From assembly GCA_964477935.1 (NCBI GenBank), contig CAYZFX010000007.1, positions 21,553 through 85,552 on the forward strand: a DNA stretch of 64,000 nt, given 5' to 3'. The DNA comes from an uncultured Syntrophorhabdus sp. Its GTDB lineage: Bacteria; Desulfobacterota; BSN033; UBA1163. The position numbers and the translations under genes are program-made. Shown here in pieces: positions 9,894 through 63,584 of the stretch; the first letter of the stretch is position 1; each line of letters begins with the position of its first letter. The notes beneath the pieces were generated by a model. That model did not search any database. It was not told the DNA's origin and worked only from the letters and a program-made list of their open reading frames with translations.

Positions 9894-9917
9894 GGTTCCT
9901 CCTGATAGACGTGGCGG

Positions 9918-12352: not shown

Positions 12353-12399
12353 TCAATAAGGGCGAAGACGTTAAAAATTGAGAAAAGGAGGACAAAAAG

Positions 12400-12681
12400 A
12401 TGAGAGCAAAAGAGATCTTCAAAGCAGGGATGATGGGAGCGGTGATGGCCCTTATGGCGACTCCGGCCTTTGCAAGAACCATTGAATTGAAAGAGGCGGG
12501 ACCTACCCTCTGGATCTTCGTGGCGATCGGAGCAGTGATCGTTCTCATGCAGCTGATTCCGGCCCTCGTCCTCTTCTTCAGCTTCATCGGCACCACCGCC
12601 ACGATGGCTTTAAAGAGAAAGGCGGCTGAGGTAGAGGGAGTAACGGTCCCCGGACTCGAACCGGTTGCGGTGAAGAAGTAA
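12400..12681 (+). CDS. Small exported/membrane protein (93 aa), unknown function
   Basis: Signal peptide ending AFA-RT, then one hydrophobic helix. Strong SD AAAGGAGGA 8 nt upstream. Confidence 0.5.
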   Translation: MRAKEIFKAGMMGAVMALMATPAFARTIELKEAGPTLWIFVAIGAVIVLMQLIPALVLFFSFIGTTATMALKRKAAEVEGVTVPGLEPVAVKK

Positions 12682-12755
12682 GGGCAGGAACATCAGCTTG
12701 GGGCTCGGCCGAACGATCCTGCGGCACCCCCGGGGATGCCGCAGGATAGGAAACT

Positions 12756-14537: not shown

Positions 14538-14626
14538 AAGAACCTCCTCTGGTATAATGATCCATCGATAAAAGGAAAAGGTTGAAGGGATTTCTTAAAA
14601 ACGATGAAGAAATGCCCTTGGACCGA

Positions 14627-15814: not shown

Positions 15815-15875
15815 AGAATCCTCCTCTCCCCACCCAACCCTTCCCTCAAGAGGAAAAGGGTAAGGTTGGCCTGGG

Positions 15876-27943: not shown

Positions 27944-28028
27944 GAGACCTTACGTTTAAATTTAGGGGGTTGGAGGTTAAACGCTCCTCTCGGGGATTGA
28001 GCGGTCACCTCCAACCTCAGATTTTCAA

Positions 28029-29244: not shown

Positions 29245-30288
29245 GTGTTCCCAGTACTCAAGGAGGAAGGCCTTTTCATGGAAACCGGAAAGCTTCCTAT
29301 TGACCTTCTTGAAAAGGCGTTAAAAAGATATTCTCTTCTTGATCCTACCGTCGTTCTTGGCCCAAAAATCGGGGAGGATGCCGCTGTAATCGATCCCGGA
29401 AAAGAATCAAAGCATTATTGGGTGGTCACTTCGGATCCCATCACGTTCACGACAGAAGAGATCGGATATTACGGTGTCGTCGTCAATCTAAACGACCTCG
29501 CCACCCGGGGAGCCACTCCGAAATATTTTCTGGCCACCCTCCTCTTTCCGGAACAGGGCTCAACCCCGAAGACCGTTGAAAAGACGTTCCGTCAGATCCA
29601 TGAGGCCTGCCGACGCTTTGGCCTCTCTTTTATCGGAGGCCATACCGAGATCACCCCTGGCCTTGATAGGGTTATTCTCTCCGGTCACATGATCGGAACC
29701 GTCAAAAAAGGAGGTCTGGTCCAAACCAGCGGCGCAAGAGCAGGAGATCTCTTGCTCATGGCCAAAGGCGTCTGCATTGAGGGAACGTCGATCATTGCCA
29801 GAGAAAGGGAAAAAGCCTTGCTGAGCAGAGGATTTTCCCCTTCCTTCCTGAACAGGGCGAAAGATTTCATCTTCGACCCTGGAATCGATGTCCTTCAGGT
29901 AGCCCGAATCGCCTGCCGAACCGCCAACATCCATTCGATGCACGATCCTACTGAGGGAGGTCTCATCAACGGGGTCGTTGAGATGGCCATGGCCTCGGGA
30001 AGAGAGATCGAGGTCAATCTTGGAGAGGTTTTCGTATACGACGAAGCGAAACTCCTCTGTGCGGAGTTCGGGCTCGATCCTCTGAGGACGATCGCCTCGG
30101 GATCGCTCCTCTTGACGATCTCCCCGGCAGACCTCCCTGCCCTCCAAAAAGCCTTTCGAAGGGCTTCGATCCCCCTCCGTGTCATCGGAAGAGTGGGGCG
30201 AGCCCCAGGCCGGGCCTTCGCATGGGAGGGAAAAAGGAGGCGAATATTACACCCCGTATCCAGGGATGAAATTTTAAAAATATTCTGA
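29245..30288 (+). CDS. AIR-synthase-related protein (PurM superfamily; ThiL/HypE-like ATP-dependent kinase fold)
   Basis: IGEDAAVID and VVVNLNDLATRGATP motifs shared with ThiL/PurM. Likely start is METGKL at 29278 with an AAGGAGGA SD. Lacks the SelD N-terminal Sec/Cys-Lys motif. Confidence 0.7.
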   Translation: MFPVLKEEGLFMETGKLPIDLLEKALKRYSLLDPTVVLGPKIGEDAAVIDPGKESKHYWVVTSDPITFTTEEIGYYGVVVNLNDLATRGATPKYFLATLLFPEQGSTPKTVEKTFRQIHEACRRFGLSFIGGHTEITPGLDRVILSGHMIGTVKKGGLVQTSGARAGDLLLMAKGVCIEGTSIIAREREKALLSRGFSPSFLNRAKDFIFDPGIDVLQVARIACRTANIHSMHDPTEGGLINGVVEMAMASGREIEVNLGEVFVYDEAKLLCAEFGLDPLRTIASGSLLLTISPADLPALQKAFRRASIPLRVIGRVGRAPGRAFAWEGKRRRILHPVSRDEILKIF

Positions 30289-47194: not shown

Positions 47195-48646
47195 TTACAT
47201 CAACCCTGCGATCGATTTCTGTGCGAATGAGAGGACATTGGCAGGAAAGATCCCCATGTAGAACGTCCCGATCAAGGCTAAAATCAGGGCGATCACCGGA
47301 GCCGGTGAAAACTGGAGACCGCTAATCTCCCGCTCCGGTTCCCTGAAATACATGAGCACCGTGACCCGGAGGTAGTAGTAGACGGAGATGGCGCTGTTGA
47401 GCACTCCGAGAATGGCCAGCCAGTAATACTTGGCCTCCACGGCTGCACTGAAGATATAGAATTTGGCCATGAATCCGCCCAGGGGAGGAATCCCTGCCAG
47501 GGAGAGGAGAAAGACGGTCATCGAGGCGGACAGGAGGGGATACTTGAAACCCACCCCAGCATAATCGGTGATCAGGGTGTTCTCCTCACCTTTCTTGCCG
47601 AGGAGGATGACGCAGGTGAAGGCGCCCAGATTCATAAAGGCATACGCCATGAGATAGAAGAGGATGGAGGAGGTCCCCAGTTTATTCCCGGCGACAAAGG
47701 CTACGAGGATATATCCTGCATGGGCAATGCTCGAGTAGGCCAGCATCCTTTTGATGTTGTTCTGGGAGATGGCGATGATGTTCCCCACCGTCATCGTCAA
47801 TACCGCAATGAGCCACATGATCGCAGTCCAGTCCGGTTGAAATGATGGAAGGGCGGTGAAGAAGACTCGGATCAGGGCTGAAAACCCGGCAGATTTGACG
47901 CCGGTGGCCATGAAGGCGGTCACCGACGTCGGCGCCCCCTCATAGACATCGGGCGTCCACATATGAAAGGGGACAGAAGCAATCTTGAAGCCGAAACCGA
48001 TGGTAAGAAAAGCAAGACTCATGAGGAGCATCGGATGATCGAGAAGTTTTTTCTCGGCAATGTAAGAGGCGATATCCTTGAGGTAAAGGGAGCCGGTGGC
48101 GCCATAGAGAAAAGCAATCCCGTAGAGCAAAAACCCTGTGGCAAATGCCCCAAGGAGGAAGTATTTGAAGGCCGACTCCACCGACTTCCGATTCTCTCTC
48201 ATCATTCCAGCCAGGATGTAGATGGAGAGGGACATCGTCTCCAGGCCGAGGAAGATGACGATCAAATGGGTTCCTGCGGCCATCAACATCATCCCGAGCG
48301 TAGCGAAGAGCAGGAGGCTGTAATATTCGCCGAACCCGATCCCCTCCCTCGTCACATAGCCCATCGAGATCAGGATGGTCAGAAACGCGATCAGGAGGAT
48401 CATGATCTTGAAGAAGAGGGCAAATCCATCGGAGGTGAACATCCCTTCAAACCCCATCTCTCCGGATCCCACAAGGGGAAGGGAATAGAAAAAGGCGAGG
48501 ACTACGCCGATCAGGCTGAGGATTCCGAGATATCCCTTCTTCTCCCCTCTGGGTCCAAAGACATCTACCAGAAGGACCAGAAATCCAAAGGCCGCGATGA
48601 TGATTTCCGGCGCTATGAGGTCAAGATCAATCTCTGGTAATTTCAT
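47195..48646 (-). CDS. nuoN: NADH-quinone oxidoreductase subunit N
   Basis: 483 aa antiporter-like subunit; NuoN-type N-terminus and TM profile. Confidence 0.9.
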   Translation of the reverse strand: MKLPEIDLDLIAPEIIIAAFGFLVLLVDVFGPRGEKKGYLGILSLIGVVLAFFYSLPLVGSGEMGFEGMFTSDGFALFFKIMILLIAFLTILISMGYVTREGIGFGEYYSLLLFATLGMMLMAAGTHLIVIFLGLETMSLSIYILAGMMRENRKSVESAFKYFLLGAFATGFLLYGIAFLYGATGSLYLKDIASYIAEKKLLDHPMLLMSLAFLTIGFGFKIASVPFHMWTPDVYEGAPTSVTAFMATGVKSAGFSALIRVFFTALPSFQPDWTAIMWLIAVLTMTVGNIIAISQNNIKRMLAYSSIAHAGYILVAFVAGNKLGTSSILFYLMAYAFMNLGAFTCVILLGKKGEENTLITDYAGVGFKYPLLSASMTVFLLSLAGIPPLGGFMAKFYIFSAAVEAKYYWLAILGVLNSAISVYYYLRVTVLMYFREPEREISGLQFSPAPVIALILALIGTFYMGIFPANVLSFAQKSIAGLM

Positions 48647-48769: not shown

Positions 48770-50314
48770 CTACTCTCTAACCTCTGCAACGACCTTTGGG
48801 GCAGGCGCTTCCACTTTCCTTTCGATCTTCGTCTTCACGTCATTCAGGAACTTCTCCACGCTCGCATCCATCTTGGTGAAGAAGAGCTTGGGATAGATCC
48901 CCATGAGAAAGATGAGGGCAATCATGGGAAGGAGCGTGATGACCTCCCGCCCATGGAGGTCTTTCAACTTTTCGTTTTCGGGATGGGTGATCCTGCCGAA
49001 CATCACCCGCTGAAACATCCAGAGCATATAGGCCGCACCCAGGATCACTCCTGAGGCCGCTAAAACACCATAGACCGTATTGGTCTGAAAGGCACCGAGG
49101 AGGATGAGAAACTCTCCCACAAACCCATTCGTCCCGGGCAGCCCGATGGACGAAAGGGTGACGATCATAAAACAGGCAGCCAAAACCGGCATCACCTTCG
49201 AAATCCCCCCAAAGTCCGCGATCATCCGGGTATGCCTTCGCTCATAGAGCATCCCGACGATCAGGAAGAGGGAACCGGTGCTGATCCCGTGATTGAGCAT
49301 CTGATAGATCGACCCCTGCACACCCTGGGGATTGAAGGCGAACATACCGAGCATCACGTAGCCCAGGTGGCTGACGCTCGAGAAGGCCACCAGCCTCTTG
49401 AGGTCGGGCTGCATCATCGAGACCAGCGCCCCGTAGATGATCCCGATGAGGGCCAGAACCGAGATCAGAGGCATCAGATCAAAGGCCGCATTCGGAAACA
49501 GGGGAATGGCAAACCGGATAAATCCATAGGTCCCCATCTTGAGGAGGACGCCCGCCAGAATGACGCTCCCCGCCGTTGGCGCTTCGGTGTGCGCATCGGG
49601 CAACCACGTATGGAAAGGAAACATCGGCACCTTGATGGCAAAAGCCAGGGCAAAGGCTCCAAAGAGCCAGTACTGGGTGGAGACGGGAAGGCCCAACTGG
49701 TAGAGTTCGAGCACATCGAAGGTCCCCTTGCCGGTGGCGCTCCCATGGAGAAAATAGAGGGCCAGAATGGCCACCAGCATCAGCACGCTTCCGGCCATGG
49801 TGAAGAGGAAGAATTTAACGGCCGCATAGATCCGCCTTGCCGGATTGCCCCAGACGCCGATCAGGAGATACATGGGAATGAGCATCGCCTCCCAGAAGAC
49901 ATAGAAGAGGATGAGGTCGAGGGCGACCAAGGCACCGACCATCCCCGTCTCGAGAATAAGAAAGGAGATCATATACTCCTTGACCCGAAAGGTGATGGCC
50001 GTCCAGGAGCAGAGAACGCAGAGGACCGTCAGGAAGGTCGTCAGAAGCACGAGGAGAAGGCTGATGCCATCGATCCCGACCTTATAACTGATGCCATAGG
50101 CCTCCACCCACCACCAATCCTCCACGAACTGCATGGCCCCCGTGGTGGAATCGAATTTAAAGAAGAGAGGAAGGGAGGCCAGAAATTCGATCAGGGTAAT
50201 AATCAGGGTCGTCCCCCGGAGGGTTTCCTCCTTCTTCCAAAAGAGGAGCAGGATGGCCCCTCCAAGGGGAAAGAAAATCAGAAAGGATAGAATGGGGATA
50301 CCCAAGATGTCCAT
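48770..50314 (-). CDS. nuoM: NADH-quinone oxidoreductase subunit M
   Basis: 514 aa antiporter-like subunit. Confidence 0.9.
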
Positions 50315-50358: not shown

Positions 50359-52335
50359 TCATTTAAAGAAAATCCCTCGCAAGATGTAGTATCCTGCCAG
50401 GATCCCTCCGCCGACGACCATCGAAAAGGCATAGTGCTGAACCAAACCGGTCTGTACCCGTCTCATCACGCTGGAGATCCAGCCGATGAGGTAGGCCAGA
50501 CCGTTGACCGTCCCATCAATGATGAAATCATCAACCCCTTTCCAGAGTCCCCGCCCTAAGCCCTTGACGGAGTTGACAAAGAGGATCTGGTAGAGCTCAT
50601 CGACATAATATTTATTCGAGACCAATCTATACAGGCCTTTCCACCTCTCGGTCAGGACCTTCGGAAGGTGAGGGTGTTTCAGATAGAGAAAGTAGGCGAT
50701 CCCGATCCCGGTGAAGGCGATCGCAACGGAGAGGGCCATGAGGAAGATCTCGAGCGCGGCGGAATGGCCCCCTGCTCCTCCTGCGGCCCAGGCCTGGGAG
50801 ATGAGGGGGAATCCAGCAAGGGCTTTTGCGGGTTCAGCACCTCCCCCCACCACAGGCGCCAGGAATTCGTGGATATGGTTGGCCCCTCCTAAGACATGCG
50901 GCACTCCCACATATCCTCCCACGATCGAGAGCAGGGCGAGGAGGATCAGGGGAACGGTCATGATCTTTGGAGATTCGTGAATGTGATGTTCGAGGTGAGG
51001 ATCCACCCTCGAGGCACCGAAGAAGGTCATGAAAAGGGCCCTGAACATATAGAAGGCAGTCATCCCTGCCGCCACGGCCGCCACCAGCCAGAGCAGGAAG
51101 TGGCCCCGTTCACTGGAGAAGGCCATCCAGAGGATCTCGTCCTTGCTGAAGAATCCCGAAAGGCCGGGGACGCCCGAAATCGCCAGCGTGGCGATGAAGA
51201 ACGTCCAGAAGGTGACGGGAATCTTCCTCCTCAACCCGCCCATCCTCCGGATATCGAGCTCACCGCTTAGGGCATGCATCACACTCCCCGCACCGAGGAA
51301 GAGGAGTCCTTTGAAGAAGGCATGGGTCATCAGATGAAAGATTCCCGCGGCATAGGCCCCCACGCCCACCGCGACGAACATATATCCGAGCTGGCTGATC
51401 GTCGAATAGGCCAGGATCTTCTTCAGGTCGTACTGACAGAAGCCGATCGAGGCCGTGAAGATGGCCGTGGCCACGCCCACCGTTGCCACAACCGCCATCG
51501 CCACAGGGGCCAGGTTGTAAATCACGCTGCACCGGGCCACCATATAGACGCCCGCCGTAACCATCGTGGCGGCATGGATCAGGGAGCTGACCGGAGTGGG
51601 GCCCTCCATCGCATCGGGAAGCCAGACGTAGAGGGGGATCTGGGCGGACTTTCCACAGGCGCCGAGGAAGAGGAGGAGGGCGATCGCGGTGGCGGTCGCC
51701 GGATCGAGGTTGTTTGCCTTGGCGAAGGCCTCGGTAAAATCGAGCGTCCCCAGGTGGACGAAGATCAGAAACATGCCCAAGATAAAACCAAAGTCCCCCA
51801 CGCGATTGACGACGAAGGCCTTCTTTCCCGCATTGGCCGCCGAATCCCTCTCATACCAGAAGCCGATCAGCAGATAGGAGCAGAGGCCGACCCCTTCCCA
51901 TCCCACGAACATGAGAAGGAAGTTGTTGGCCAGGACGAGATTGAGCATCATGAAGACGAAGAGGTTGAGATAGGTGAAGTAGCGGGCATATCCCGGATCG
52001 TCATGCATGTATCCCACGGAGTAGATATGGATGAGAAAGCTCACGCCGGTCACGATCAGGGCCATGAGGATGGAGAGGGGATCGATCTGGTAGCCGATCA
52101 CCGTCTGAAACGGTCCCGAGACGACCCAATCGAAGATCACCTTCTCGAACAGTCGTTCTGCCGGAGGCCGTTGGATCAGTTCGAAAAAGATGAGGAGGGA
52201 GACGAGGAAGGAAAGGCCGACCGCCGAAGGCCCCACCCAGCTGACCGTGCCCTTTCCAAGCCCCTTCCCCAGGAGGCCGTTGATCAGAAATCCAACAAAC
52301 GGGAAGAGAGGGATGAGCCACACATAGTCAAGCAT
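50359..52335 (-). CDS. nuoL: NADH-quinone oxidoreductase subunit L
   Basis: 658 aa antiporter-like subunit with a C-terminal long-helix extension. Confidence 0.9.
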   Translation of the reverse strand: MLDYVWLIPLFPFVGFLINGLLGKGLGKGTVSWVGPSAVGLSFLVSLLIFFELIQRPPAERLFEKVIFDWVVSGPFQTVIGYQIDPLSILMALIVTGVSFLIHIYSVGYMHDDPGYARYFTYLNLFVFMMLNLVLANNFLLMFVGWEGVGLCSYLLIGFWYERDSAANAGKKAFVVNRVGDFGFILGMFLIFVHLGTLDFTEAFAKANNLDPATATAIALLLFLGACGKSAQIPLYVWLPDAMEGPTPVSSLIHAATMVTAGVYMVARCSVIYNLAPVAMAVVATVGVATAIFTASIGFCQYDLKKILAYSTISQLGYMFVAVGVGAYAAGIFHLMTHAFFKGLLFLGAGSVMHALSGELDIRRMGGLRRKIPVTFWTFFIATLAISGVPGLSGFFSKDEILWMAFSSERGHFLLWLVAAVAAGMTAFYMFRALFMTFFGASRVDPHLEHHIHESPKIMTVPLILLALLSIVGGYVGVPHVLGGANHIHEFLAPVVGGGAEPAKALAGFPLISQAWAAGGAGGHSAALEIFLMALSVAIAFTGIGIAYFLYLKHPHLPKVLTERWKGLYRLVSNKYYVDELYQILFVNSVKGLGRGLWKGVDDFIIDGTVNGLAYLIGWISSVMRRVQTGLVQHYAFSMVVGGGILAGYYILRGIFFK

Positions 52336-52427: not shown

Positions 52428-52745
52428 TCACCACTTCAAGAGATTCACCTCGTCGACGTTGATCGTCCCTTTGGAACGATAGAGCATAACGAAGATGGCC
52501 AGTCCCACCGCTGCCTCGGCCGCAGCCACCGCCATCACGAAGAAGGCGAAGATCACGCCGTCCACAGATTGAAGAAAACGGGAAAAGGTGACGAAGGTCA
52601 GATTGACCGCATTGAGCATCAGCTCGATAGAGATGAAGACGATGATGGCGTTCCGTCGGGTCAGCGCACCGATCACGCCGAGGGTGAAGAGCACGCCGCT
52701 CAGGACGAGGTAGAGGGCAGGCGGGATGCTGGGGATAGGCCACAT
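52428..52745 (-). CDS. nuoK: NADH-quinone oxidoreductase subunit K
   Basis: 105 aa with three TM helices and the conserved Glu in TM2. Confidence 0.9.
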
Positions 52746-52757: not shown

Positions 52758-53285
52758 TTATCTCCTTTGCTTGCTCAAGACGACCGCTCCGATCATGGCC
52801 GCCACGAGGAGGACGGAAACGATCTCGAAGGGGAAGAGGTAGGTGGTAAAGATCGCCTCTCCCACGGCCTCCACATTCGATCCCATCTTCTCCAATGAAT
52901 AGGTGCCCGTCTGGCCGCTGGGAGACCGAGCGAGGACCGTAACCACAATCCCGATGAGAAAGAGCAGGGCGAAGAGTCCTCCGAAGACCTTGGGATAGGT
53001 GATCTTGAGCCTCGAACGGAGTTCGGTCTCCAGGTCCAGGAGCATGATGACGAAGACGATGAGCATCACGATGGCTCCCGCATAGACGATGACCTGGATG
53101 ATGGCGATGAAAGGGCTGTGGAGGAGGAGGTAGAGGACGGCCACGCAGAGGAGGGTCAGAGCCATGAAGAGGGCGCTGTGAATCGGGTTTTTCCGTGTGA
53201 TGACCATCAGGGAGGCGAAGATCGAGATCCCTGCCATCCCTAAAAAGATCAACCATTGAAAGAGGACTCCGAGATGTTCCGGCAT
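52758..53285 (-). CDS. nuoJ: NADH-quinone oxidoreductase subunit J
   Basis: 175 aa NuoJ-like membrane subunit. Confidence 0.85.
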   Translation of the reverse strand: MPEHLGVLFQWLIFLGMAGISIFASLMVITRKNPIHSALFMALTLLCVAVLYLLLHSPFIAIIQVIVYAGAIVMLIVFVIMLLDLETELRSRLKITYPKVFGGLFALLFLIGIVVTVLARSPSGQTGTYSLEKMGSNVEAVGEAIFTTYLFPFEIVSVLLVAAMIGAVVLSKQRR

Positions 53286-53396: not shown

Positions 53397-53825
53397 TTAG
53401 ATCGAGCTCGATGATGGATTCTTCTTCTTCTCTTCCAAAAGCTTCTCCGTGTTCAACAAAAAGGGGGCCCTCGATGGCTCCACCCATTCGTAATTCTTGC
53501 CGAGAAAGAGGGCATTGACCGGACAGGCCTCCTCACAGTAACCGCAGTAGATACATCGCAGGGCATCCAGCTCGTAGGTGAGGGGATAACGCCTTCCGTC
53601 CTGGCCCTCGGCGGTCACGATCGAGATGCACTGGGAGGGGCAGATGGCCATGCAGAGACCGCAGGCCACACATTTCAGCCTCCCATTTTCATCCTTCTCA
53701 AAATAATGAATGCCCCTCCACCGTTTCGCCGGGGGCACTTTCTCTTCCGGATACTGAAGGGTGATCGGTCTGGAGAAGAACTGCCTCAGGGTGAAAGCCA
53801 AACCTTTAAGTAGTGGGATGATCAT
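53397..53825 (-). CDS. nuoI: NADH-quinone oxidoreductase subunit I (2x[4Fe-4S] ferredoxin)
   Basis: Two CxxCxxCxxxCP motifs (CVACGLCMAICP, CIYCGYCEEACP). Confidence 0.9.
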   Translation of the reverse strand: MIIPLLKGLAFTLRQFFSRPITLQYPEEKVPPAKRWRGIHYFEKDENGRLKCVACGLCMAICPSQCISIVTAEGQDGRRYPLTYELDALRCIYCGYCEEACPVNALFLGKNYEWVEPSRAPFLLNTEKLLEEKKKNPSSSSI

Positions 53826-53841: not shown

Positions 53842-54861
53842 TCATCCTTTCAAAGAAACGACCAGCGCCGTGATCAAGAGATTGGCAAGGGCCAGCGGAA
53901 AGAGGACCTTCCATCCAAATTTCATGATCTGGTCGTAACGGAGCCTCGGGAATGTCCCTCTCTGCCAGATGAAGAAGAAGAGGAAGACAAAGAGCTTCGT
54001 GCAGAACCAGACAATTCCCGGGATGAAATCGAGCTGGGGCAGTGGCGCCTGCCACCCTCCCCAGAAGAGGGTGACCGCCAGGCTGCCCATCGCGATCATA
54101 TGGGCGTACTCGGCCATGAAGAAGAGCGCAAATTTCATGCTGCTATATTCGATGTTAAATCCGCAGGCCAGCTCCGATTCGGACTCCGGCATATCGAAGG
54201 GGGTGCGGTTGATCTCCGCCAGGCCGCAGACGAGATAGAGGAGGAAGGCGAGGGGCTGATACCAGACATTCCAGTTCCAGAACCCTCCGGCTTGGTGGTG
54301 GACGATCTCCGTTAGCCTCAAACTTCCGGAGAGGAGGATTACGCCGACGACCGAAAGGCCGAGGGCCACCTCGTAGCTGATCATTTGAGCTGCGGCCCGG
54401 AGCGAACCGGTCAGCCCGTACTTGTTCCCTGAGGACCAGCCCCCGAGGACGATCCCGAACTCTCCCAGGGAGGCCACACCGAAGAGGTAGAGGAGGGCGA
54501 TGTCGATGTCTGCAATCCTCAATTGGACAACCCAGTCCGTCCAGGGTACCCTGAACTCATTCCCGAAAGGGATGACCGCAAAGAGGGCGATCGCCGAAAC
54601 GATCGAGATCATGGGCGCCAGCACAAAGACGGGTTTATCCGCGCCTGCGGGGATGAGATCCTCTTTGAAAAAGGCCTTGATGCCATCCGAAATGGGCTGG
54701 AGGAGTCCGAAGGGGCCACAGCGGTTCGGACCGTAACGGACCTGGATGTGGCCCAGAACCTTCCGCTCCAGCCAGGTGAGATAGGCCACCGAGAGCATCA
54801 GGCAGGCGAAGACCACGACACATTTCACAATCGTCTCAATGAGAAAATAGAGCACCTCCAT
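53842..54861 (-). CDS. nuoH: NADH-quinone oxidoreductase subunit H
   Basis: 339 aa, NuoH/ND1-like. Confidence 0.9.
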   Translation of the reverse strand: MEVLYFLIETIVKCVVVFACLMLSVAYLTWLERKVLGHIQVRYGPNRCGPFGLLQPISDGIKAFFKEDLIPAGADKPVFVLAPMISIVSAIALFAVIPFGNEFRVPWTDWVVQLRIADIDIALLYLFGVASLGEFGIVLGGWSSGNKYGLTGSLRAAAQMISYEVALGLSVVGVILLSGSLRLTEIVHHQAGGFWNWNVWYQPLAFLLYLVCGLAEINRTPFDMPESESELACGFNIEYSSMKFALFFMAEYAHMIAMGSLAVTLFWGGWQAPLPQLDFIPGIVWFCTKLFVFLFFFIWQRGTFPRLRYDQIMKFGWKVLFPLALANLLITALVVSLKG

Positions 54862-54886: not shown

Positions 54887-56839
54887 TCACACCGCGAACA
54901 ATCCGATTCGCACGCATCGGAGGCAGCGTTCGGCCTCCCTCCGGGCGACCGGGATGGAGAACCCCTTCTCCACCTCATCGAAGGACCATTTTCTCGTCTC
55001 AGGGGGGAGCTTCTCGGGCATGGCCCGCCTCTGCCGGCCCGGATGTTCGATCCCTTCCTCCGGGTTGTACACCTTGATTTTTTCGAGAAGGGCCTCCAGA
55101 CGCTCGGCCTTCGGTTCCTTCAACTCCCTTCCCTGAAGGTAGGCATCGATTCGATCAGCCGCTTTTCTTCCATGGCCTGCGGCCCGGACAAGGACATCTG
55201 GACCGACCACACAATCTCCCCCTGCGAAGACCCCTGGCCGGCTCGTCTGGAAGGTACCTTCGTCGATCGCAAGGGTGGACCGTTTCGTCGTCTTCACCCC
55301 ATCCTTCTCATCGAGAAAGGAGAGGTCGATCGTCTGACCGATCGCGGGAATCACGATATCGGCTTCGAGGAAAAATTCCGAACCCTTGATGGGTATAGGT
55401 CTTCGCCTGCCGCTCTCATCCGGTTCGCCCAACTCCATACGGATGCACTCCATGCCGATGACCCTGCCCTCCTTGGCCACGATCCGGACCGGATTGCAGA
55501 GGTAATGAAACTTCACCCCTTCCTCTTCGGCCTCGTGGATCTCCACCCGGTCCGCGGGCATCTCCCTCTTCGTCCGCCGGTAGACGAGATGGACGTCCGA
55601 TTTTCCGATCCGGAAGGAAGAGCGAACACAATCGATCGCCACATTGCCTCCGCCGACCACGACGACCCGCTTCCCTTCCGGGTAGGGATCTCTTCCCAGG
55701 TTGATCTCCTGAAGGTAATAGACCCCGGGGATGAACCCCTTATATCCCCTGTCCTCTCCTTCCACGCCCATGGGTATGTTGGTCTGTGCGCCGACCGCTA
55801 TATAGATGGCCTGGTATCCCTGGTCAAAGATCTGGGAGATCGTGATCTCCTTTCCCACCTGGACCGGATACTGGAACTCCACCCCCAACCGTTCGAGCAG
55901 ACCGGTCTCATAGAGGACGATCTCCCTCGGAAGCCTGTAGTCCGGAATTCCAAACGTGGCCATGCCCCCTAACTCTCCCATGCGCTCGAAGACCGTCACC
56001 CGATAGCCCTTGAGGGCAAGATAGTAGGCACAGCTCAAGCCCGAAGGCCCGGCCCCGATAATAGCCACCTTCTGGGGCCGGAGAGGGGCCTGGATCATCT
56101 CTGGTTTCATCCCCTTTTCCCGCTCGTAATCGGCCACAAATCGTTTGAGCCATTTGATCGAAAGGCACTCATCGACGTTCTGGCGTCGACAATGGTCTTC
56201 ACAGGGCCGGATGCAGACCCTCCCCAGAATCCCCGCCAAACAGGTCGCCTCCCGGATGGCGGTGAGCGATTCTCTGAACCGGCCCTCTTTGATCAATTCG
56301 ATATACCTGGTGATGGGAAGGCGGGCAGGACAGGCGGTCTCGCACGGAGCGGTCGCCTTCACCTGATAAGTCTGTCTGGGAATCCTCCTCCTCGACCGGA
56401 TCACCTCGGAAAAATGGTCCTGAAAGTGATTGAGTCCGTCGAGCAGGGGCTTGGGTCCGGTTTGTCCCAGGTTACATTTTGAACTCTGGATGATCATCTC
56501 CGCCAGTGGTCTCATCCGATCGAGGTCTTCCGGCCTTCCCTCGCCCTCGGCGATGCGGTTCATCATCGTCAGGAGGATGCGCGTGCCTACCCGGCAGGGG
56601 TTGCACTTCCCACAGGATTCCTTCTGAACCGCCTCGATGTAAGCCCGGAGGAGATCAATGGGATCGACATCCCGGTCCCGGATCACGATTCCGTCCCAGC
56701 CGATAAAGGCCTTGATCGGCCTTCCCCGATCATAGTCAACCGGAAGGGTGAGATTCGGGATGGGCACCCATTCCGAATCCGGTTTTCCCCGGTTATCCAC
56801 AACCACACCGCCCCAACTGCTGAACAGGATGCCGGTCAT
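54887..56839 (-). CDS. Fusion protein: NuoF C-terminal SLBB/[4Fe-4S] module joined to a GltD-like FeS/FAD/NAD(P)H oxidoreductase
   Basis: N-terminal ESCGKCNPCRVG...KCNLGQTGP matches the NuoF 51-kDa C-terminal FeS region. Then CETACPA...CIRPCEDHC (GltD N-terminal clusters) and two Rossmann motifs VAIIGAGPSGLSCA and VVVVGGGNVAIDC. Located exactly where nuoEFG would be. Confidence 0.8.
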   Translation of the reverse strand: MTGILFSSWGGVVVDNRGKPDSEWVPIPNLTLPVDYDRGRPIKAFIGWDGIVIRDRDVDPIDLLRAYIEAVQKESCGKCNPCRVGTRILLTMMNRIAEGEGRPEDLDRMRPLAEMIIQSSKCNLGQTGPKPLLDGLNHFQDHFSEVIRSRRRIPRQTYQVKATAPCETACPARLPITRYIELIKEGRFRESLTAIREATCLAGILGRVCIRPCEDHCRRQNVDECLSIKWLKRFVADYEREKGMKPEMIQAPLRPQKVAIIGAGPSGLSCAYYLALKGYRVTVFERMGELGGMATFGIPDYRLPREIVLYETGLLERLGVEFQYPVQVGKEITISQIFDQGYQAIYIAVGAQTNIPMGVEGEDRGYKGFIPGVYYLQEINLGRDPYPEGKRVVVVGGGNVAIDCVRSSFRIGKSDVHLVYRRTKREMPADRVEIHEAEEEGVKFHYLCNPVRIVAKEGRVIGMECIRMELGEPDESGRRRPIPIKGSEFFLEADIVIPAIGQTIDLSFLDEKDGVKTTKRSTLAIDEGTFQTSRPGVFAGGDCVVGPDVLVRAAGHGRKAADRIDAYLQGRELKEPKAERLEALLEKIKVYNPEEGIEHPGRQRRAMPEKLPPETRKWSFDEVEKGFSIPVARREAERCLRCVRIGLFAV

Positions 56840-56912: not shown

Positions 56913-58115
56913 TTACCGATCGATCTCTCCCAGGACGATGTCGATGCTTCCGATGGTAGCGATCACATCTGCGATCAGGCTCCCCTCGATCATCTTGGGA
57001 AGGGCGCTCAGGTTGAGGAAGGAGGGGGGACGAATCCTCACCCTCAAGGGTCGGTTCGATCCATCGCTCACCACATAAAAGCCCAGTTCCCCTTTGGCCG
57101 CTTCCACGCTTGCATAGGCCTCGCCTCTGGGGACGTTGAACCCTTCGGAGGCGATCTTGAACTGGTGGATCAGAGCGGCGATATCGGTGAGAACCTTCTC
57201 CTTGGGAGGCAGGACTACCCTCGGATCGTTTGCGAGGATGGGCCCCTTCGGCAGTCTTTCAAGGGCCTGTCTCACGATGGCATTCGACCACTCCATCTCT
57301 CTCAGCCGGACATAGTATCGATCATAGACGTCGCCTGCCGAACCGATGGGGATTTCAAACTCAAAGTCTTCATAGCTCGAATAGGGGAAGGCCTTCCGGA
57401 CATCCCATTTCACACCCGATCCCCGCAGGGTGGGGCCTGTGACCCCCCAGTTGATGGCATCCTCCTTGCTCAGGACACCCACGCCCCTGGTCCGTTTTAA
57501 CCAGATCACATTCTTGGTCAGGAGCGTCTCGTACTCCTTGATCCGTTTCGGAAAGCTCTCCACAAAGGCTTTGATCTTCGCCTCGATCCCATCGGGAAGG
57601 TCCTTGGCCACCCCGCCGATCCTCAGATAGGTGGGCGTCAATCTTCCACCCGCGACTTCTTCGAAGATTTTCAGGACCTCTTCCCTCTCCCTGAAATTGT
57701 AAAAGAGCAGGGTCATGGCACCGATGTCGAGGGCATGGGTGCCGAGCCAGATGAGGTGGGCCGCTATTCTCTGGAGCTCGGCCATCATTACCCTCAAATA
57801 CTTCGCCCTCTTCGGCACCTCGATGCCCAGCAGCTTCTCCACCGCCAAGACATAGGCCAGATTATTTCCCATGGCATTGGTATAATCGAGCCGGTCGGTC
57901 AGGGGGATGATCTGATGGTAGGTCCTTGCCTCAGCCAGCTTTTCAACCCCGCGGTGAAGGTGGCCGATATGGGGGGTGGCTTTGACGACCACCTCGCCAT
58001 CCAGTTCAAGCACGAGCCTCAGCACGCCATGGGTGGCTGGATGTTGAGGGCCCATATTGATGGTCATCAATCGTCGCTCTGCCATTTCAGACCTCGGGGA
58101 CAAAAGGTTTGCCAA
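56913..58115 (-). CDS. nuoD: NADH-quinone oxidoreductase subunit D
   Basis: 400 aa, MTINMGPQHPATHGVLRL 49-kDa signature. Confidence 0.95.
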   Translation of the reverse strand: MANLLSPRSEMAERRLMTINMGPQHPATHGVLRLVLELDGEVVVKATPHIGHLHRGVEKLAEARTYHQIIPLTDRLDYTNAMGNNLAYVLAVEKLLGIEVPKRAKYLRVMMAELQRIAAHLIWLGTHALDIGAMTLLFYNFREREEVLKIFEEVAGGRLTPTYLRIGGVAKDLPDGIEAKIKAFVESFPKRIKEYETLLTKNVIWLKRTRGVGVLSKEDAINWGVTGPTLRGSGVKWDVRKAFPYSSYEDFEFEIPIGSAGDVYDRYYVRLREMEWSNAIVRQALERLPKGPILANDPRVVLPPKEKVLTDIAALIHQFKIASEGFNVPRGEAYASVEAAKGELGFYVVSDGSNRPLRVRIRPPSFLNLSALPKMIEGSLIADVIATIGSIDIVLGEIDR

Positions 58116-58578
58116 AGTCCGGTCCTAAGAGCGGAAAGTCCTTTCTTAAAGGGTGGCCTTCGTACCCCTCCCAGAGGAGGATCCTCCTCAGATCCGGATG
58201 GTTTTCGAAGGAGATGCCGAAAAGGTCATAAACTTCCCTTTCGAGCCAGTTGGCCGCCTTCCAGATCGATTCGACACTGGTCACCGATTCCCCCTCTCCA
58301 ACCTTCGTCTTCACTCTTAACCGATCGTTATTCCTGAAGGAGTGGAGAAAATAGACGATCTCGAATCTCGGAACGGAGGGAAAGTAATCGACCCCGCAGA
58401 GGTCGACGAGCATGTCGTACTGGAGCTCGGGGTCGGAATAGAGAAACCGGCATATCTCGAAGAGGTCGTCCTTCGGCACGGTGACGCTTACCTCTCCCCG
58501 AAAGCTCGCCTCTTCGATGGCTGAAGTGGAAAATCTGGCCCGCAGTTTTCGGACAGCAGGGTGGCTCTCGCCCATCAC
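58087..58578 (-). CDS. nuoC: NADH-quinone oxidoreductase subunit C
   Basis: 163 aa 30-kDa subunit (EREVYDLFGI). Separate from nuoD, not fused. Confidence 0.9.
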   Translation of the reverse strand: MMGESHPAVRKLRARFSTSAIEEASFRGEVSVTVPKDDLFEICRFLYSDPELQYDMLVDLCGVDYFPSVPRFEIVYFLHSFRNNDRLRVKTKVGEGESVTSVESIWKAANWLEREVYDLFGISFENHPDLRRILLWEGYEGHPLRKDFPLLGPDFGKPFVPEV

Positions 58579-58597
58579 GCCCTCCTTCTTCTTCGCC

Positions 58598-59107
58598 TTA
58601 ACCTTTCATTTCAAGGGTGCTCTTTACGTCCTTCCGTGCAGCCAGGGTCTCCTTCTCGATCTTCTTCTGAAGCTCGATGATCGCCGTCAGGAGCGACTCC
58701 GGTCTTGGAGGACAACCTGGGACATAGAGATCGACCGGAATCATCTGGTCAACGCCCTGAACTACATTATAGGTCTTAAAAATTCCTCCCGAGCAGGCAC
58801 AGGCCCCGTAGGCGATCACCCACTTCGGCTCAGGCATCTGTTCGTAGATCCGTTTGACCATCGGGGCCATCTTCTTCGTCAGGGTCCCGGCCACGATCAT
58901 CAGGTCTGCCTGCCGGGGCGAAGGTCTGAAGACCTCCGAACCGAACCTCGAGATATCCCAGGTTCCGGAACTGGTGACCATCATCTCGAGGGCGCAACAG
59001 GCAAGGCCGAAGGTGACCGGCCAGATCGAATACTTCCTTCCCCAGTTGACCACTTTATCGAGGCTGGAGAGGTAGGGGGTCTTTTCCAGATAGGTTTCTA
59101 TTCCCAT
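58598..59107 (-). CDS. nuoB: NADH-quinone oxidoreductase subunit B
   Basis: CCALEMM ... GACACSGG N2-cluster motifs. The true start MGIETYL (ATG at 59107-59105) overlaps the nuoA stop. The ORF track extends it artificially to 59326. Confidence 0.9.
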
Positions 59108-59454
59108 TCGAGGGCTCCTTTTTTCCAGAGGTAGACATAGGCGATGATCAGGATCCCAAGGAAGACCGCCATGGAGACGAACCCAAATACCTTCAACTCC
59201 CGGAAGACGACGGCCCAGGGGTAGAGGAAGGCGATTTCGATGTCGAAGAGGAGGAAGAGCATGGCGATGATGTAGTACTTGACCGGGATCCTCCGAAAAG
59301 GGGAACCGTAGGTCGGCATCCCACATTCATAGGGAGCCTCCTTGATGGCGGTGGGCTTCCTCTGCCCGAGAAGATGGGAGGCGAGGACCGCAAAACAGGC
59401 AAAGAGGATCGCAATTCCCAAAAAGATGAGAATGGGAAGATAATCGATCAACAT
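59098..59454 (-). CDS. nuoA: NADH-quinone oxidoreductase subunit A
   Basis: 118 aa, three TM helices, NuoA-like. SD AGGAGG 6 nt upstream. Confidence 0.9.
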
Positions 59455-59520: not shown

Positions 59521-62193
59521 TCAAGGATTGACCCGTTCGATTCGGACCGTGGAGTATTTTAAATCCGGGATCTTCGATTCTGGATCGAGCACGGTATTGG
59601 TCAGGCGATTGACCGGGGCCTCCGCAAAATGGAATTTGGCAAAGGCCACTCCCTTGGCCACCCTCTCCGTGATCTTCACCCTCGAGGTGAATTCCCCTCT
59701 CCGGCTCACCACTCTGACCTGATCCTCTTCCCTGATCCCGAGCCTTTCTGCATCTTGAGGATGGATCTCCACTAAACTCTCCGGGCACATCTCGTTAAGG
59801 AGTCTCACCTTCCGGGTCATACTTCCCGCGTGATAATGGTAATAATCCCTTCCCGTACTCAGAATGAATGGAAATTCCTGATCCGGGACTTCGGGGGGAG
59901 GACTATAGTCCACGGGCACGAATAATCCCTTCCCCCTTGCGATCTTGCCCCTATGGAGGATCGGCGTTCCCGGATGGCTCACATCCGGGCAGGGCCACTG
60001 AATCCCCTTGGACTCCAGGCGGGCATAGGTGATCCCTGCATACTGGGGGGTCACCTGGCGAATCTCTTCGAAGATGTCCTCAGGCCCTCGATAAGACATC
60101 GGATATCCGAACCGGGTGGAGATCTCCGAAATGATCTCCCAATCGGCCTTAGCCCCTTCCGGACCTTCGAGCGCCTTTCTCACCCGCTGAACCCTCCTCT
60201 CGGTGTTGACGAATGTCCCGTCCTTCTCGAGGAAGCTCAGGGTGGGAAAGACGACATGGGCCTGCTGGGCCGACTCCGTGAGAAAGAGGTCCTGAACCAC
60301 GAGGAGGTCCAATTTGGCATAAGCCTTCTGGAGATGGGATAGATCGGGGTCGGTCACCATGGGATTCTCCCCCATGATGTAAATCGCTTTAACCTCTCCC
60401 CTGTAGGCGGCCTCTCCAATCTCAACGACCGTAAGACCAGGTTTCTCTGAGAGGGATGTGTTCCAGAAATATTCAAACTTCTCCCTGTTCTCCCTGATCG
60501 CCACGGCCTGATACCCAGGATAGACATTCGGCAGACAACCCATGTCGCAGGCCCCCTGCACATTATTCTGCCCTCTCAAGGGGTTGACCCCGCTTCCGGG
60601 TTTTCCGAGCTGACCGCAGAGGAGGGCCAGATTGGAGATCGCCTTCACTCCGTCCGTACCCTTTGAGTGCTGGGTGATTCCCATGCAGTAGAGGATGGCC
60701 GCATTCTTTGCCGTGGCATACATCCGCGCTGCCTTGATGAGCTGGTCTTTCGGAATTCCGGTCAGCTCTTCCACATATTCAGGCGTGTATTGTGCAACCT
60801 TCTCCTTAAAGGCCTCGAACCCCTCTGTATGAGCTTCGATGAATCCCTTATTATAGAGATTCTCTTTGAGGATGATGTGTGCCAAACCGTTTAACCAGGC
60901 AATATCATCCCCGGGTTTGGGCTGGAGGAAGAGGTCGGCCTCCTCGGTGAGATCGATCCGTCTCGGATCGACAACGATGATCTTGGCCCCGTGGAATCGA
61001 GAGCGGTTCCTAAGGACCATTCCGATGACTGGATGGGTTTCGGTCGTATTGCTTCCGGTCACGAGAAAGAGATCTGCCTCTTTGAAATCGGCGATGGAGT
61101 TGGTCATCGCGCCGGAGCCTAAGGTCGTGGCCAGACCGACCACGGTGCTGGAGTGTCAGAGACGGGCACAGTGGTCCACATTGTTCGTCCCGATGGCAGC
61201 CCTGAGAAACTTCTGGAAGAGGTAGTTTTCTTCACAGGTGACCCGGGCAGAGGCGAGTCCGGCGATGCTGTTCGGGCCATAGGTCGCCTTGATCTCTCTC
61301 AGCCTCGTGGCTACGAACGTCAGGGCTTCCTCCCAGCTGGCTTCTCTCAACCGGCCATTTTCACGGATGAGTGGGGTTTTGAGCCTTTCAGGGCTGTGGA
61401 CGAATTCGAAGCCGAACCTCCCTTTGACACAGAGAACCCCGTGATTCGTGCCAAGCCCCTCACGGGTGGTTACCTTAATCACCCTGTTTTGGACCACGTT
61501 CACCTCGAGAGAACAGCCCACGCCGCAGTATCCACAGATCGTCGTCACCCTCTCCGCCTGCCATTTCCTTCCCTTGATTGGACTGACGTTCTCTGTCAGT
61601 GCGCCCACTGGGCAGGCGGCCAGACACTCCCCGCAGGAGATGCACCTTTCTGGCCGCACGGGCTCCACGCGGGCGTCGAAGCCAGTGCCGTGGAGATCGA
61701 GGACCTCCCGGCCGACGACCTCCCGGCAGGTTCGGATGCACCGGCTGCAGAGGATACAGCGGTTCGGGTGGTATCGGATGGCTGGAGTGGAATAGGTTCG
61801 GACTTCTTTCGCCGGCGCCTCCACCCGGTAGACCGTCTCGGTGATCCCATATTCGTAAACATAATCCTGGAGGTCACATTCCCCTCCCTTATCACAGACC
61901 GGACAATCAAGGGGGTGATTCACCAGCAGGAACTGAAGGACCTCTTTTCGGATCTCGCGGACCTTGTCGGTCTCTGTCTCCACGACCATCCCGTCCACAG
62001 CCACCGTGTTGCAGGCGGTCACAGGGTTTTTAAGTCCCTCGATCTCGACCACACACATCCTGCACATGCCAGTGGGTAGGAGACTCTCCATGTAGCAAAG
62101 CGTCGGGATACGGATACCATCCTTCTTGGCCATTTGAAGAATGGTCAGGCCCTCTTCTCCTTCGATGAGTCTGCCATTGATCGTGATCTTCAT
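59521..62193 (-). CDS. fdhA: Selenocysteine-containing molybdopterin formate dehydrogenase alpha subunit, NuoG-like N-terminus (FdsA/FdhA type); one gene spanning two track ORFs via an in-frame UGA at 61156-61158
   Basis: N-terminal 2Fe-2S, His-ligated HPLDCPVCDKGGEC and two ferredoxin-type 4Fe-4S motifs. Then the MopB domain, where NVDHCARL-[TGA][20 protein letters not shown] aligns with E. coli FdhF NVDCCARV-U-HGPSVAGL. Downstream MopB motifs include GVNPLRGQNNVQGACDMG. Confidence 0.8.
61120..61146 (-). promoter_or_regulatory. Candidate bacterial SECIS hairpin (7-bp stem CGUGGUC/GGCCACG, apical loop GGUCU) beginning 12 nt 3' of the UGA codon
   Basis: Seen in sequence in minus-strand sense. 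The position and G/U-containing apical loop are consistent with SelB-binding SECIS elements. Confidence 0.45.
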
Positions 62194-62477
62194 TCTGATC
62201 TCCTCCCGAGGAGGCTCCTTTGGTCAACTCCTAATGAACAACGGGCAGTTTAACAAAAATGGCTTGCCTTTTAAAGAGGGAGCCCAGGAATTTCGGAATC
62301 CATGGACCTCTGCCTGGGTAAACCTTCCCTTCTTGTGAAATATTTAATTAGCCCCTATTGAATAGAACAACCCGTCGAAATTGTCAAGTTAAAAAATGGG
62401 CCGAAAATCTTGACGTTTCCCTTCTTCTCTGATACGTTTCTCAAAAATCATGAGATGATGGAAGGGATGAAAATCCG

Positions 62478-63584
62478 TTGACGGAACAACTTTTTGAGAC
62501 GAACTGGATCAAGGGAGTGGAATTATCGAACCGGTTCGTTCGCTCCGCCACCTGGGAAGGCATGGCCACACCGGAGGGTACCGTCACCCCCAAATTGATC
62601 GAAACAATGGTTGGCCTGGCCAGAGGCGGGGTCGGGTTGATCATCACCGGCCATGCCTATGTCCAGCCGGAGGGACAGGCAAGCCCCTTCCAGCTCGCCA
62701 TCCACAACGATTACCTCCTCGAAGGACTTCAAGAATTGACCGGAGCCGTCCATCGCTGCGGTGGAAAGATCTTTCTCCAGATGGCTCATGCAGGGGCCTT
62801 TGCCATGAGGCAGCAGACGGGAAGACCTCCTCTTGCCGTCTCCTACATCGAAGGTCTCTTCCCCTTGCCGGTCGAGGAAATGACGTCAGTCACTATCCGG
62901 GAAGTCGTCCACGCCTTTGCTGAGGCTGCCTACAGGGCTAAATCCACTGGCTTCGATGGGATCCAGATCCACGCCGCCCATGGCTACCTTCTTAACCAGT
63001 TCCTCTCTCCAGCCTTTAACAGACGACAGGATGAATATGGGGGAAGCCTGCCCAATCGAGTTCGGATTCACCTCGAAATCCTCGAGGCCATCCGGAAGGT
63101 CGTGGGCGAAGACTATCCCATCTTGATCAAGTTGAATGGCAGGGATTTTATTGAAAATGGATTGACTCTCGAGGACTCCGTCCAGATCGGGAAGATCCTG
63201 GCCCAGGGAGGAATCGATGGCATCGAACTGAGCGGAGGGATGATCAGAGCCGGGAGACTCTCACCCAGCCGGCAGGGAATTGATTCGATCGAGAGAGAGG
63301 CCTATTTCCGGGAAGAGGCTGGGTTCATGAAAAAGGAGGTCGGGCTCCCCTTGATCTTGGTGGGTGGCATCCGATCCTTCGAAGTCGCTGAACGACTCCT
63401 CCTGGAAGGATATGCCGACTACATCTCCATGAGCCGGCCTTTCATCCGGGAACCGGAGCTGATCCGTCGCTGGCAGCATGGCGATCGTCGAAAATCCACC
63501 TGCCGTTCCGACAACCTCTGCTTCAAGCCAGGCAGGGAGGGCGAAGGGGTCTACTGTGTCGCGAAGTCGAAATCCGAGGCCTAA
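62478..63584 (+). CDS. NADH:flavin oxidoreductase (Old Yellow Enzyme family)
   Basis: 368 aa with OYE TIM-barrel motifs (GLIITGHAYV, QMAHAG, HAAHGYLLNQFLSP). Confidence 0.85.
   Translation: MTEQLFETNWIKGVELSNRFVRSATWEGMATPEGTVTPKLIETMVGLARGGVGLIITGHAYVQPEGQASPFQLAIHNDYLLEGLQELTGAVHRCGGKIFLQMAHAGAFAMRQQTGRPPLAVSYIEGLFPLPVEEMTSVTIREVVHAFAEAAYRAKSTGFDGIQIHAAHGYLLNQFLSPAFNRRQDEYGGSLPNRVRIHLEILEAIRKVVGEDYPILIKLNGRDFIENGLTLEDSVQIGKILAQGGIDGIELSGGMIRAGRLSPSRQGIDSIEREAYFREEAGFMKKEVGLPLILVGGIRSFEVAERLLLEGYADYISMSRPFIREPELIRRWQHGDRRKSTCRSDNLCFKPGREGEGVYCVAKSKSEA

Follow-up and report, generated by a model that had tools for sequence, protein, structure and literature searches.

An in-frame UGA and a complex I operon setting for a predicted formate dehydrogenase gene of an uncultured Syntrophorhabdus sp.

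The fdhA gene and its predicted product

The gene studied here, fdhA, lies on the minus strand of a 64,000-nucleotide stretch of DNA from an uncultured Syntrophorhabdus sp. (contig CAYZFX010000007.1; the whole stretch is called the window), where it is the first gene of an operon of complex I (nuo) genes. A minus-strand open reading frame (ORF) running from 62193 to 61156 closes with a TGA codon (61158..61156), after which the same frame runs on through CAC TCC AGC ACC to a GTG at 61143 and ends at a stop codon at 59523..59521. An earlier reading of the letters, made without database searches (the sequence-only reading), had proposed that the two ORFs are one selenoprotein gene joined by an in-frame UGA, with a product of about 890 amino acids. 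When we repeated this, every position and sequence was reproduced: the joined frame encodes 890 amino acids, scores above the cutoff of the formate dehydrogenase alpha family, and is interrupted only once, by the UGA at codon 346. The features of the gene are as follows.

62200..62207, minus strand: strong Shine-Dalgarno sequence GGGAGGAG, 6 nt ahead of the ATG at 62193, read from the sequence
59521..62193, minus strand: fdhA, from translation a single coding sequence of 890 codons plus stop, with one internal UGA (selenocysteine 346, Sec346)
61543..62193, minus strand: N-terminal NuoG/HoxU-like iron-sulfur domain, residues 1-217 (NCBIfam NuoG 431 bits, HoxU 168 bits)
61156..61158, minus strand: UGA codon 346, read as selenocysteine (Sec), aligned with Sec140 of Escherichia coli FdhF and with the Cys of FdsA
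61153..61155, minus strand: codon for His347, the catalytic His after Sec, aligned with His141 of FdhF and CAC or CAT in all 48 aligned loci
61126..61144, minus strand: selenocysteine insertion sequence (SECIS) hairpin CGUGGUC-GGUCU-GGCCACG, with its loop at 61137..61133 and a conserved 6-bp core at 61143..61127 (61143..61138 pairing with 61132..61127)
60574..60576, minus strand: codon for Arg540, the catalytic Arg, in GVNPLRGQNNVQG, aligned with Arg333 in GVNPVRGQNNVQG of FdhF and with the equivalent Arg of FdsA

For scoring against the NCBIfam profiles, the UGA of the joined gene was written as Cys. The protein reached 870.7 bits with TIGR01591 (Fdh-alpha), against a cutoff of 666.25, and residues 218-885 covered the whole profile (1-672 of 672). 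The NuoG profile (TIGR01973) gave 431.4 bits, which is below its cutoff of 470.05, and its match, like that of HoxU, covers the first ~217 residues. This N-terminal domain carries the motif of a 2Fe-2S site (C33, C44, C47, C61), that of a His-ligated 4Fe-4S site (H93, C97, C100, C106) and two ferredoxin-type 4Fe-4S motifs, starting at C146 and C184. The proximal 4Fe-4S motif of the catalytic domain is intact as well (C220, C223, C227 and C255, CGYCGVGC...LCVKG).

Among solved structures the best relatives were FdsA of Rhodobacter capsulatus (PDB 6tg9/6tga; 775 bits) and its close homologue 9wxb (779 bits), both collinear with FdhA over residues 3-887. FdhF of HDCR and FdhF of E. coli were also among the matches, and the 75-kDa subunits of complex I (NuoG/NDUFS1 structures) matched residues 3-440 with 230-258 bits. 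The sequence-only reading had placed the UGA at the Sec site of E. coli FdhF. Alignment of the joined translation to both FdhF and FdsA bore this out. FdhF, taken from fdhF in NC_000913, shares 44% identity over 689 amino acids with FdhA, and the two UGAs fall in the same column, which in E. coli reads IGTNNVDCCARV-UGA-HGPSVAGL. FdhF residues Sec140, His141 and Arg333 fall on U346, H347 and R540 of FdhA. FdsA is collinear, with the UGA column corresponding to the Cys of its CARVCH motif.

These comparisons show that 62193..59521 is one gene, predicted to encode FdhA, an 890-amino-acid protein that is the catalytic subunit of a formate dehydrogenase dependent on molybdenum or tungsten. As a NuoG the protein fails by its predicted features: its score lies below the family cutoff, and its C-terminal domain is a full formate dehydrogenase catalytic domain with Sec, His and Arg.

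Divergently from fdhA, a gene for an Old-Yellow-Enzyme-type NADH:flavin oxidoreductase was found at 62478..63584 on the plus strand; the same neighbour is present in two related loci (L001 and L085 in our numbering).

The UGA codon and the hairpin downstream of it

ORF finding gives two ORFs at this position, and a public contig that is 98% identical (L085) carries the same split gene call, into 345 and 528 amino acids. If the TGA, a normal stop in this genome, were a true stop here too, FdhA would be split into a 345-amino-acid iron-sulfur protein and a separately started molybdopterin protein of 528-540 amino acids. In the fdhA locus sequence no Shine-Dalgarno sequence was found ahead of the GTG at 61143 or ahead of the ATG chosen by gene callers, and that GTG is a Val codon inside the hairpin stem. 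Furthermore, the break would fall exactly at the catalytic residue, so that neither half could be active.

Related loci were collected in a scan with one genome per species, which gave 80 loci; the codon and hairpin alignment covers 48 loci. The codon at the UGA position is TGA in 79 of the 80 and TGC in the remaining one; TAA or TAG was never found in these 79 loci, and TGA alternates with Cys codons. At the two Ser codons that follow the UGA, loci differ in using TCN or AGY codons, and therefore the supposed inter-ORF stretch is under selection at the protein level. In a collection of 5.8 billion proteins, the nearest proteins (85-98% identity) are C-terminal halves of 528-540 amino acids that are cut at the UGA, whereas the full-length homologues (at most 60% identity) have Cys at the Sec column in 108 of 120 cases. 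Together with the conserved SECIS element described below, these observations leave very little probability for a split FdhA, and the two-gene call in L085 is an annotation artefact. The Cys codons that the sequence-only reading had named as a test of its alignment were thus found in orthologues: TGC in one of the 80 loci, TGT in a Cys-type nuo-linked homologue (L082), and Cys in the 108 database homologues.

Among the full-length homologues there are also two with Trp and one with Gly at the Sec column (P0008, P0014 and P0009, deposited with CARLWH or CARLGH). Taken at face value they would suggest that UGA is reassigned to Trp or Gly (genetic code 4 or 25) and not decoded as Sec. However, TGA is the commonest ordinary stop in the window, ending 28 of 47 confidently assigned genes, fdhA itself included, and therefore no reassignment of the code has taken place. 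The 108 homologues have Cys at this column, which is a metal ligand in solved structures, a SECIS element follows the codon, and no in-frame TGAs were seen at conserved Trp or Gly columns of other window genes. The Trp and Gly calls are most likely gene-caller artefacts in which TGA was translated by code 4 or 25, and we consider a reassignment close to excluded.

A third explanation is that fdhA is a pseudogene, or a Cys-type gene with an assembly or sequencing error, since TGA differs from TGC and TGT by one base only; Cys-type relatives do exist, and one of them, L082, still has the hairpin. Against this, TGA recurs in 79 genomes that were assembled independently, the 98%-identical contig L085 has it too, and the 890 codons contain no other frame disruption. 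A chance defect is, in our estimate, highly improbable.

We also searched the window for other in-frame TGAs with at least 80 open codons flanking them. In total 27 were found, and only the fdhA UGA joins two segments of one protein family. The remaining ones are gene boundaries or lie in non-coding frames, and other selenoprotein candidates were thus dropped.

As a side observation, the best full-length database match (60% identity) is P0001, encoded at L083 9497..12166. In this protein Cys-Gln replaces Sec/Cys-His at the active site and its gene follows etfB-etfA; it is unlikely to be a formate dehydrogenase of the usual kind.

The sequence-only reading had further described a 7-bp hairpin with the apical loop GGUCU starting 12 nt after the UGA, and this was present as described and in the register of E. 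coli fdhF. The stem has 7 bp including one G.U pair, and an 11-nt spacer precedes it, so that the first stem nucleotide is the 12th after the UGA; GGUCUG begins 18 nt past the UGA in both this fdhA and E. coli fdhF. The two strands of the window contain 184 GGTCT pentamers, and the fdhA hairpin loop is the sole one closed by at least 6 bp. In the alignment, the six core pairs are paired in 48 of 48 loci and the loop is near-invariant, while the seventh pair of the window's stem is not kept in relatives. Pair 21-33 is GC in 31 loci, AU in 16 and GU in one. One partner is the third base of a Val codon (GUG/GUA) and the other that of an Ala codon (GCC/GCU), so that these changes are synonymous. 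Pair 24-30 is CG in 46 loci and AU in two, and double changes in both pairs lie at synonymous sites. The covariation score was 0.279 compared to 0.178 for shuffles; none of 500 shuffles reached the score, and controls slid along the alignment were all lower. In a permissive Rfam scan of 301 nt the best family match was SECIS_3 (RF01989; 24 bits, E = 0.0032).

Several observations weigh against this interpretation. The 24 bits of SECIS_3 compare with a gathering score of 63, and a gathering-threshold Rfam scan of the window did not report the hairpin. The 7-bp stem forms on folding, but the 71-nt hairpin region is no stabler than shuffled sequence (z = +1.09), and therefore the support for the hairpin comes from position and conservation and not from folding energy. 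The stem is uninterrupted, lacking the bulged U of the E. coli fdhF element; to our knowledge, a bulged U is not universal among bacterial SECIS elements. Part of the conservation follows from the conserved peptide V-[AV]-G-L-A, and the nuo-linked Cys homologue L082 (TGT) retains a hairpin. Finally, neither the 64-kb window nor the loci fetched from relatives contained selA, selB, selD or tRNA-Sec, which is uninformative for the whole genome. ARAGORN reported no tRNA gene in the window and none in 14 related loci, and Pfam and NCBIfam scans of ~45 window ORFs gave no selA, selB or selD.

One protein of the AIR-synthase family (29278..30288, plus strand) was considered as SelD and rejected, as it scored 67 bits against a cutoff of 125; it is also below the HypE and ThiL cutoffs.

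The L082 gene (10001..12697), from a Thermodesulforhabdaceae metagenome-assembled genome (MAG) and encoding protein P0002, has the hairpin GGUGGCC-GGUCU-GGCCACC at the same place. From the sequence, this looks like a fossil SECIS element left by a recent Sec-to-Cys change. In the TGC locus (L059) the hairpin is lost and the loop reads GGCCU.

All considered, a single Sec-type fdhA gene with its UGA decoded as Sec is by a wide margin our favoured explanation; the part that concerns the nuo operon is graded on its own below. By analogy with known selenoproteins we infer both Sec insertion at codon 346 and a Sec-decoding machinery in the organism. A ribosome arriving at the UGA would not terminate: the hairpin would recruit SelB.GTP.Sec-tRNA(Sec), as in E. 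coli fdhF, and Sec would be inserted. Sec346 would then ligate a Mo/W-bis-pyranopterin cofactor and form, together with His347 and Arg540, the site at which formate is oxidised or CO2 reduced. No bacterial selenoprotein is more common than formate dehydrogenase, and a Sec-type FdhA with a SECIS element is an ordinary member of its family. The practical yield here is a corrected annotation (one 890-amino-acid gene with a transl_except for Sec) and a marker of selenium use in the lineage. What is unexpected is the setting of the gene, in a nuo operon and in place of the NADH-input genes.

The nuo operon and the possible role of FdhA in it

The operon has the order fdhA-nuoABCD-flavoprotein-nuoHIJKLMN, where the flavoprotein combines a NuoF C-terminus with a GltD-like part. 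Downstream of fdhA the following genes were found.

59098..59454, minus strand: nuoA (NCBIfam NuoA, E = 4e-36), 66 nt downstream of the fdhA stop
59107..58598, minus strand: nuoB (NCBIfam nuoB_fam, 233 bits, above cutoff)
58578..58087, minus strand: nuoC (NCBIfam NuoC_fam, 150 bits, above cutoff)
58115..56913, minus strand: nuoD (NCBIfam NuoD TIGR01962, 579 bits against a cutoff of 459)
54887..56839, minus strand: 650-amino-acid flavoprotein (NCBIfam PRK12814/PRK12771, ~460 bits; nuoF_fam at positions 293-409)
54861..53842, minus strand: nuoH (NCBIfam NuoH)
53825..53397, minus strand: nuoI (NCBIfam NuoI)
53285..52758, minus strand: nuoJ (ORF translation; the matching 175-amino-acid gene of L085 has Pfam Oxidored_q3)
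52745..52428, minus strand: nuoK (ORF translation; the matching 105-amino-acid gene of L085 has Pfam Oxidored_q2)
52335..50359, minus strand: nuoL (NCBIfam NuoL)
50314..48770, minus strand: nuoM (tblastn to syntenic genes of related loci that carry Pfam Proton_antipo_M)
48646..47195, minus strand: nuoN (tblastn to syntenic genes of related loci that carry Pfam Proton_antipo_M)

No terminator-like site was found on the minus strand in the 66-nt gap between fdhA and nuoA. The operon in the window contains no nuoE, nuoF or nuoG; from NuoF only the C-terminal N3 domain is present, fused to the GltD-like flavoprotein. Residues 17-156 of this 650-amino-acid protein match the C-terminal 4Fe-4S (N3) domain of NuoF/HydB with 50-100 bits; over residues 145-647 the protein resembles a GltD/NfnB-like NAD(P)H-FAD domain that has two 4Fe-4S clusters. 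Its matches in the PDB include NfnA (9n5u, 391 bits) and StnC (8oh5_C, 333 bits). NuoB has the tandem-Cys motif GLACCALE of cluster N2 and NuoD lacks the NiFe-ligand cysteines; by these motifs, the module encoded by nuoBCD (56913..59107) therefore looks quinone-reducing and not hydrogen-evolving.

We searched the fetched loci with the window proteins by tblastn and inspected the gene tables of further contigs. Linkage of fdhA to nuo genes was found in 16 loci, in three arrangements. The order of the window recurs in L001, L003-L006, L012 and L085, and in L002 up to the contig end. The second arrangement, nuoABCD-gltD-like-fdhA-nuoHIJKLMN, was found in L007-L010 and in the Cys-type loci L082 and L086, in both of which nuoH starts only 3 nt after the fdhA stop. 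The third, nuoABCD-fdhA-nuoHIJKLMN without any flavoprotein gene, is that of L013. An NAD(P)H flavoprotein whose docking domain is of the NuoF type is thus encoded in most nuo-linked loci, though not in L013, and in seven loci (L007-L010, L013, L082 and L086) fdhA occupies the slot of nuoEFG. In a neighbour-joining tree the nuo-linked FdhAs form one clade, apart from Desulfobacteraceae-type Sec-FdhAs that have no nuo neighbours. The relatives are represented by MAGs of uncultured Thermodesulfobacteriota and 'Deltaproteobacteria', obtained from subsurface and lake samples. In one of them, a Thermodesulforhabdaceae MAG, the operon lies beside sat and qmo/hdrA-like genes.

The L013 locus (6422..18949) has an fdhA of the Sec type and likewise adjoins sat and hdrA/qmo-like genes. 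It is the simplest arrangement, and judged by its gene content formate would be its only evident donor.

This gene setting shifts the likely role of FdhA from that of a soluble enzyme to that of a subunit of a membrane complex. We propose, with somewhat better than even confidence, that FdhA, by its NuoG-like N-terminal iron-sulfur domain, and the 650-amino-acid flavoprotein may stand in for NuoE, NuoF and NuoG as the electron-input module of a complex-I-like enzyme. In FdsA-type enzymes the C184-type ferredoxin cluster links the main chain with the Mo-proximal cluster. The equivalent cluster of NuoG, N7, is by contrast isolated and too far from N4 for electron exchange (PMC10068793). FdhA keeps this extra ferredoxin-type 4Fe-4S motif (C184..), and therefore formate electrons could reach NuoI, NuoB and menaquinone. 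Electrons from formate, and from NAD(P)H, would pass through the clusters of FdhA, then NuoI and NuoB, and finally reduce menaquinone while protons are pumped. In the reverse mode, the proton motive force would drive the reduction of CO2 by menaquinol.

The window also contains a beta-oxidation cluster on the minus strand (12756..19737, also delimited as 12756..18281), which encodes an acyl-CoA dehydrogenase, a thiolase, a fused 3-hydroxyacyl-CoA dehydrogenase/enoyl-CoA hydratase, a metallo-beta-lactamase-fold protein and a TetR regulator. This cluster hints at a fatty-acid-degrading lifestyle and would fit the reverse, CO2-reducing mode for a syntrophic fatty-acid oxidiser.

Alternatively, the Sec-type FdhA and the GltD-like flavoprotein may together be a soluble formate dehydrogenase that uses NADP(H) and shares only its transcription with an 11-subunit Nuo fed by another donor, e.g. 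ferredoxin. This would agree with the resemblance of the GltD-like protein to the NADPH-binding part of soluble Nfn/Stn enzymes, and anaerobes commonly have Nuo complexes of 11 subunits for which no donor is known (PMC11238625, PMC5736913). Pairs of FdhA and GltD-like genes without nuo genes were also found in three loci (L040, L049 and L072). This last observation counts against our proposal, as do two further points: the clade to which the window belongs has fdhA upstream of nuoA and not between nuoD and nuoH, and synteny is the sole line of evidence from which a complex-I role of FdhA is suggested. On the other hand, the nuo linkage survives three gene orders in the 16 loci, fdhA sits in the nuoEFG slot in seven of them and comes within 3 nt of the nuoH start in L082 and L086, and L013 has fdhA in the slot without a flavoprotein gene. 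Moreover, the N3 domain of the flavoprotein is of the NuoF type, and in complex I this domain docks on NuoG. A soluble enzyme is thus a serious alternative, to which we give roughly one chance in three; the electron-input module is the reading that we prefer.

Extended to the lineage, our proposal is that a lineage of Thermodesulfobacteriota, and some Nitrospirota-like MAGs, may have a complex I in which NuoEFG is replaced by an intact Sec- or Cys-type formate dehydrogenase in the NuoG position, acting as a proton-pumping formate(/NADPH):menaquinone oxidoreductase or, in reverse, as a CO2 reductase. We regard the chances of this wider claim as even. A literature search found no account of a catalytic FdhA in a nuo operon, within an accessible literature that is incomplete; it gave general remarks only, on the likeness of NuoG to formate dehydrogenases and on the missing donor of 11-subunit Nuo complexes. 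Many anaerobes have an 11-subunit Nuo with an unknown donor; in the window and in 15 related loci, an active formate dehydrogenase, placed where NuoG would normally be, seems to supply the input module that is missing. If this is true, a donor (in reverse, a product) is named for 11-subunit Nuo complexes and formate metabolism is linked directly to proton pumping. There would also be an experimental handle on the evolution of NuoG from formate dehydrogenase, with a living counterpart of its formate dehydrogenase-like ancestor. In the reverse mode, the formation of formate from menaquinol by proton motive force would be the reverse-electron-transport step that syntrophic fatty-acid oxidisers need.

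Two further features of the window were recorded. A thiamine pyrophosphate (TPP) riboswitch (Rfam RF00059, 68 bits, over the gathering score) was the only report of the gathering-threshold Rfam scan. It precedes four genes on the plus strand (1741..5561), encoding a hydroxyethylthiazole kinase, ThiW, a double ABC ATPase and a CbiQ-like transmembrane component, which look like an operon for thiamine salvage and energy-coupling factor (ECF) uptake. At 26096..29123 (plus strand) lie two separate genes. The first encodes a 615-amino-acid protein that has a PEP-utilizers mobile domain at its end, and the second a 364-amino-acid protein with the N-terminal ATP-binding domain of pyruvate phosphate dikinase (PPDK). 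This is a phosphoenolpyruvate (PEP) synthase/PPDK-like enzyme in two genes and in permuted order.

Comparison with known systems

With E. coli FdhF, the formate dehydrogenase of formate hydrogenlyase, FdhA shares the UGA column, the His that follows it, the catalytic Arg, the proximal 4Fe-4S motif and GGUCUG at 18 nt. FdhF, too, passes its electrons to a membrane complex that is related to complex I (PMC7050243). However, FdhF lacks the 217-residue NuoG-like N-terminal iron-sulfur domain, and its partner complex ends in a [NiFe] hydrogenase and not in a quinone site. The SECIS elements differ as well, with a bulged U and a longer lower stem in E. coli fdhF and a plain 6-7-bp stem here.

NuoG has the same N-terminal cluster-binding domain, and in relatives of the window fdhA takes the NuoG slot between nuoD and nuoH. 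The C-terminal formate dehydrogenase-like domain of NuoG has lost sequence conservation, the catalytic site and the cofactor (PMC3144371), and mycobacterial complex I shows no formate dehydrogenase activity (PMC10068793). In contrast, FdhA retains the full predicted active site, including the costly Sec.

In the Bfu-type transhydrogenases Stn/NfnABC, the large subunit (8oh5 chain C, 9n5u chain A) is a fusion of a GltD-like NADPH/FAD module with a NuoG/FdhA-like module. The 650-amino-acid protein of the window matches the GltD-like part (333-391 bits) and FdhA matches the second part (278 bits). Here, however, each module has its own gene, the FdhA part has kept an intact catalytic site as far as its sequence indicates, the flavoprotein has an added NuoF-type N3 domain, and there is no NuoE/F-like bifurcating pair.

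The formate dehydrogenase FdhAB of Moorella thermoacetica is NADP-dependent and contains tungsten and selenium, with a Sec-containing alpha subunit of ~96 kDa and an NADP(H)-using beta subunit of ~76 kDa. We take these sizes to resemble those of the 98-kDa and 71-kDa proteins encoded here. FdhAB is a soluble enzyme of the Wood-Ljungdahl pathway and is not known to be encoded in a nuo operon.

FdsA, from the NAD+-dependent FdsABG(D) of R. capsulatus, has the NuoG-like 2Fe-2S/4Fe-4S domain, the extra ferredoxin-type clusters and a collinear catalytic domain. It differs in having Cys instead of Sec and in being part of a soluble enzyme, where it is paired with the NuoE and NuoF homologues FdsG and FdsB. 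In the window, no NuoE/F homologues accompany FdhA; its neighbours are the GltD-like flavoprotein and eleven membrane and Q-module nuo genes. Judged from these alignments, FdhA is closest to FdsA in its predicted architecture and to E. coli fdhF in its putative recoding signal.

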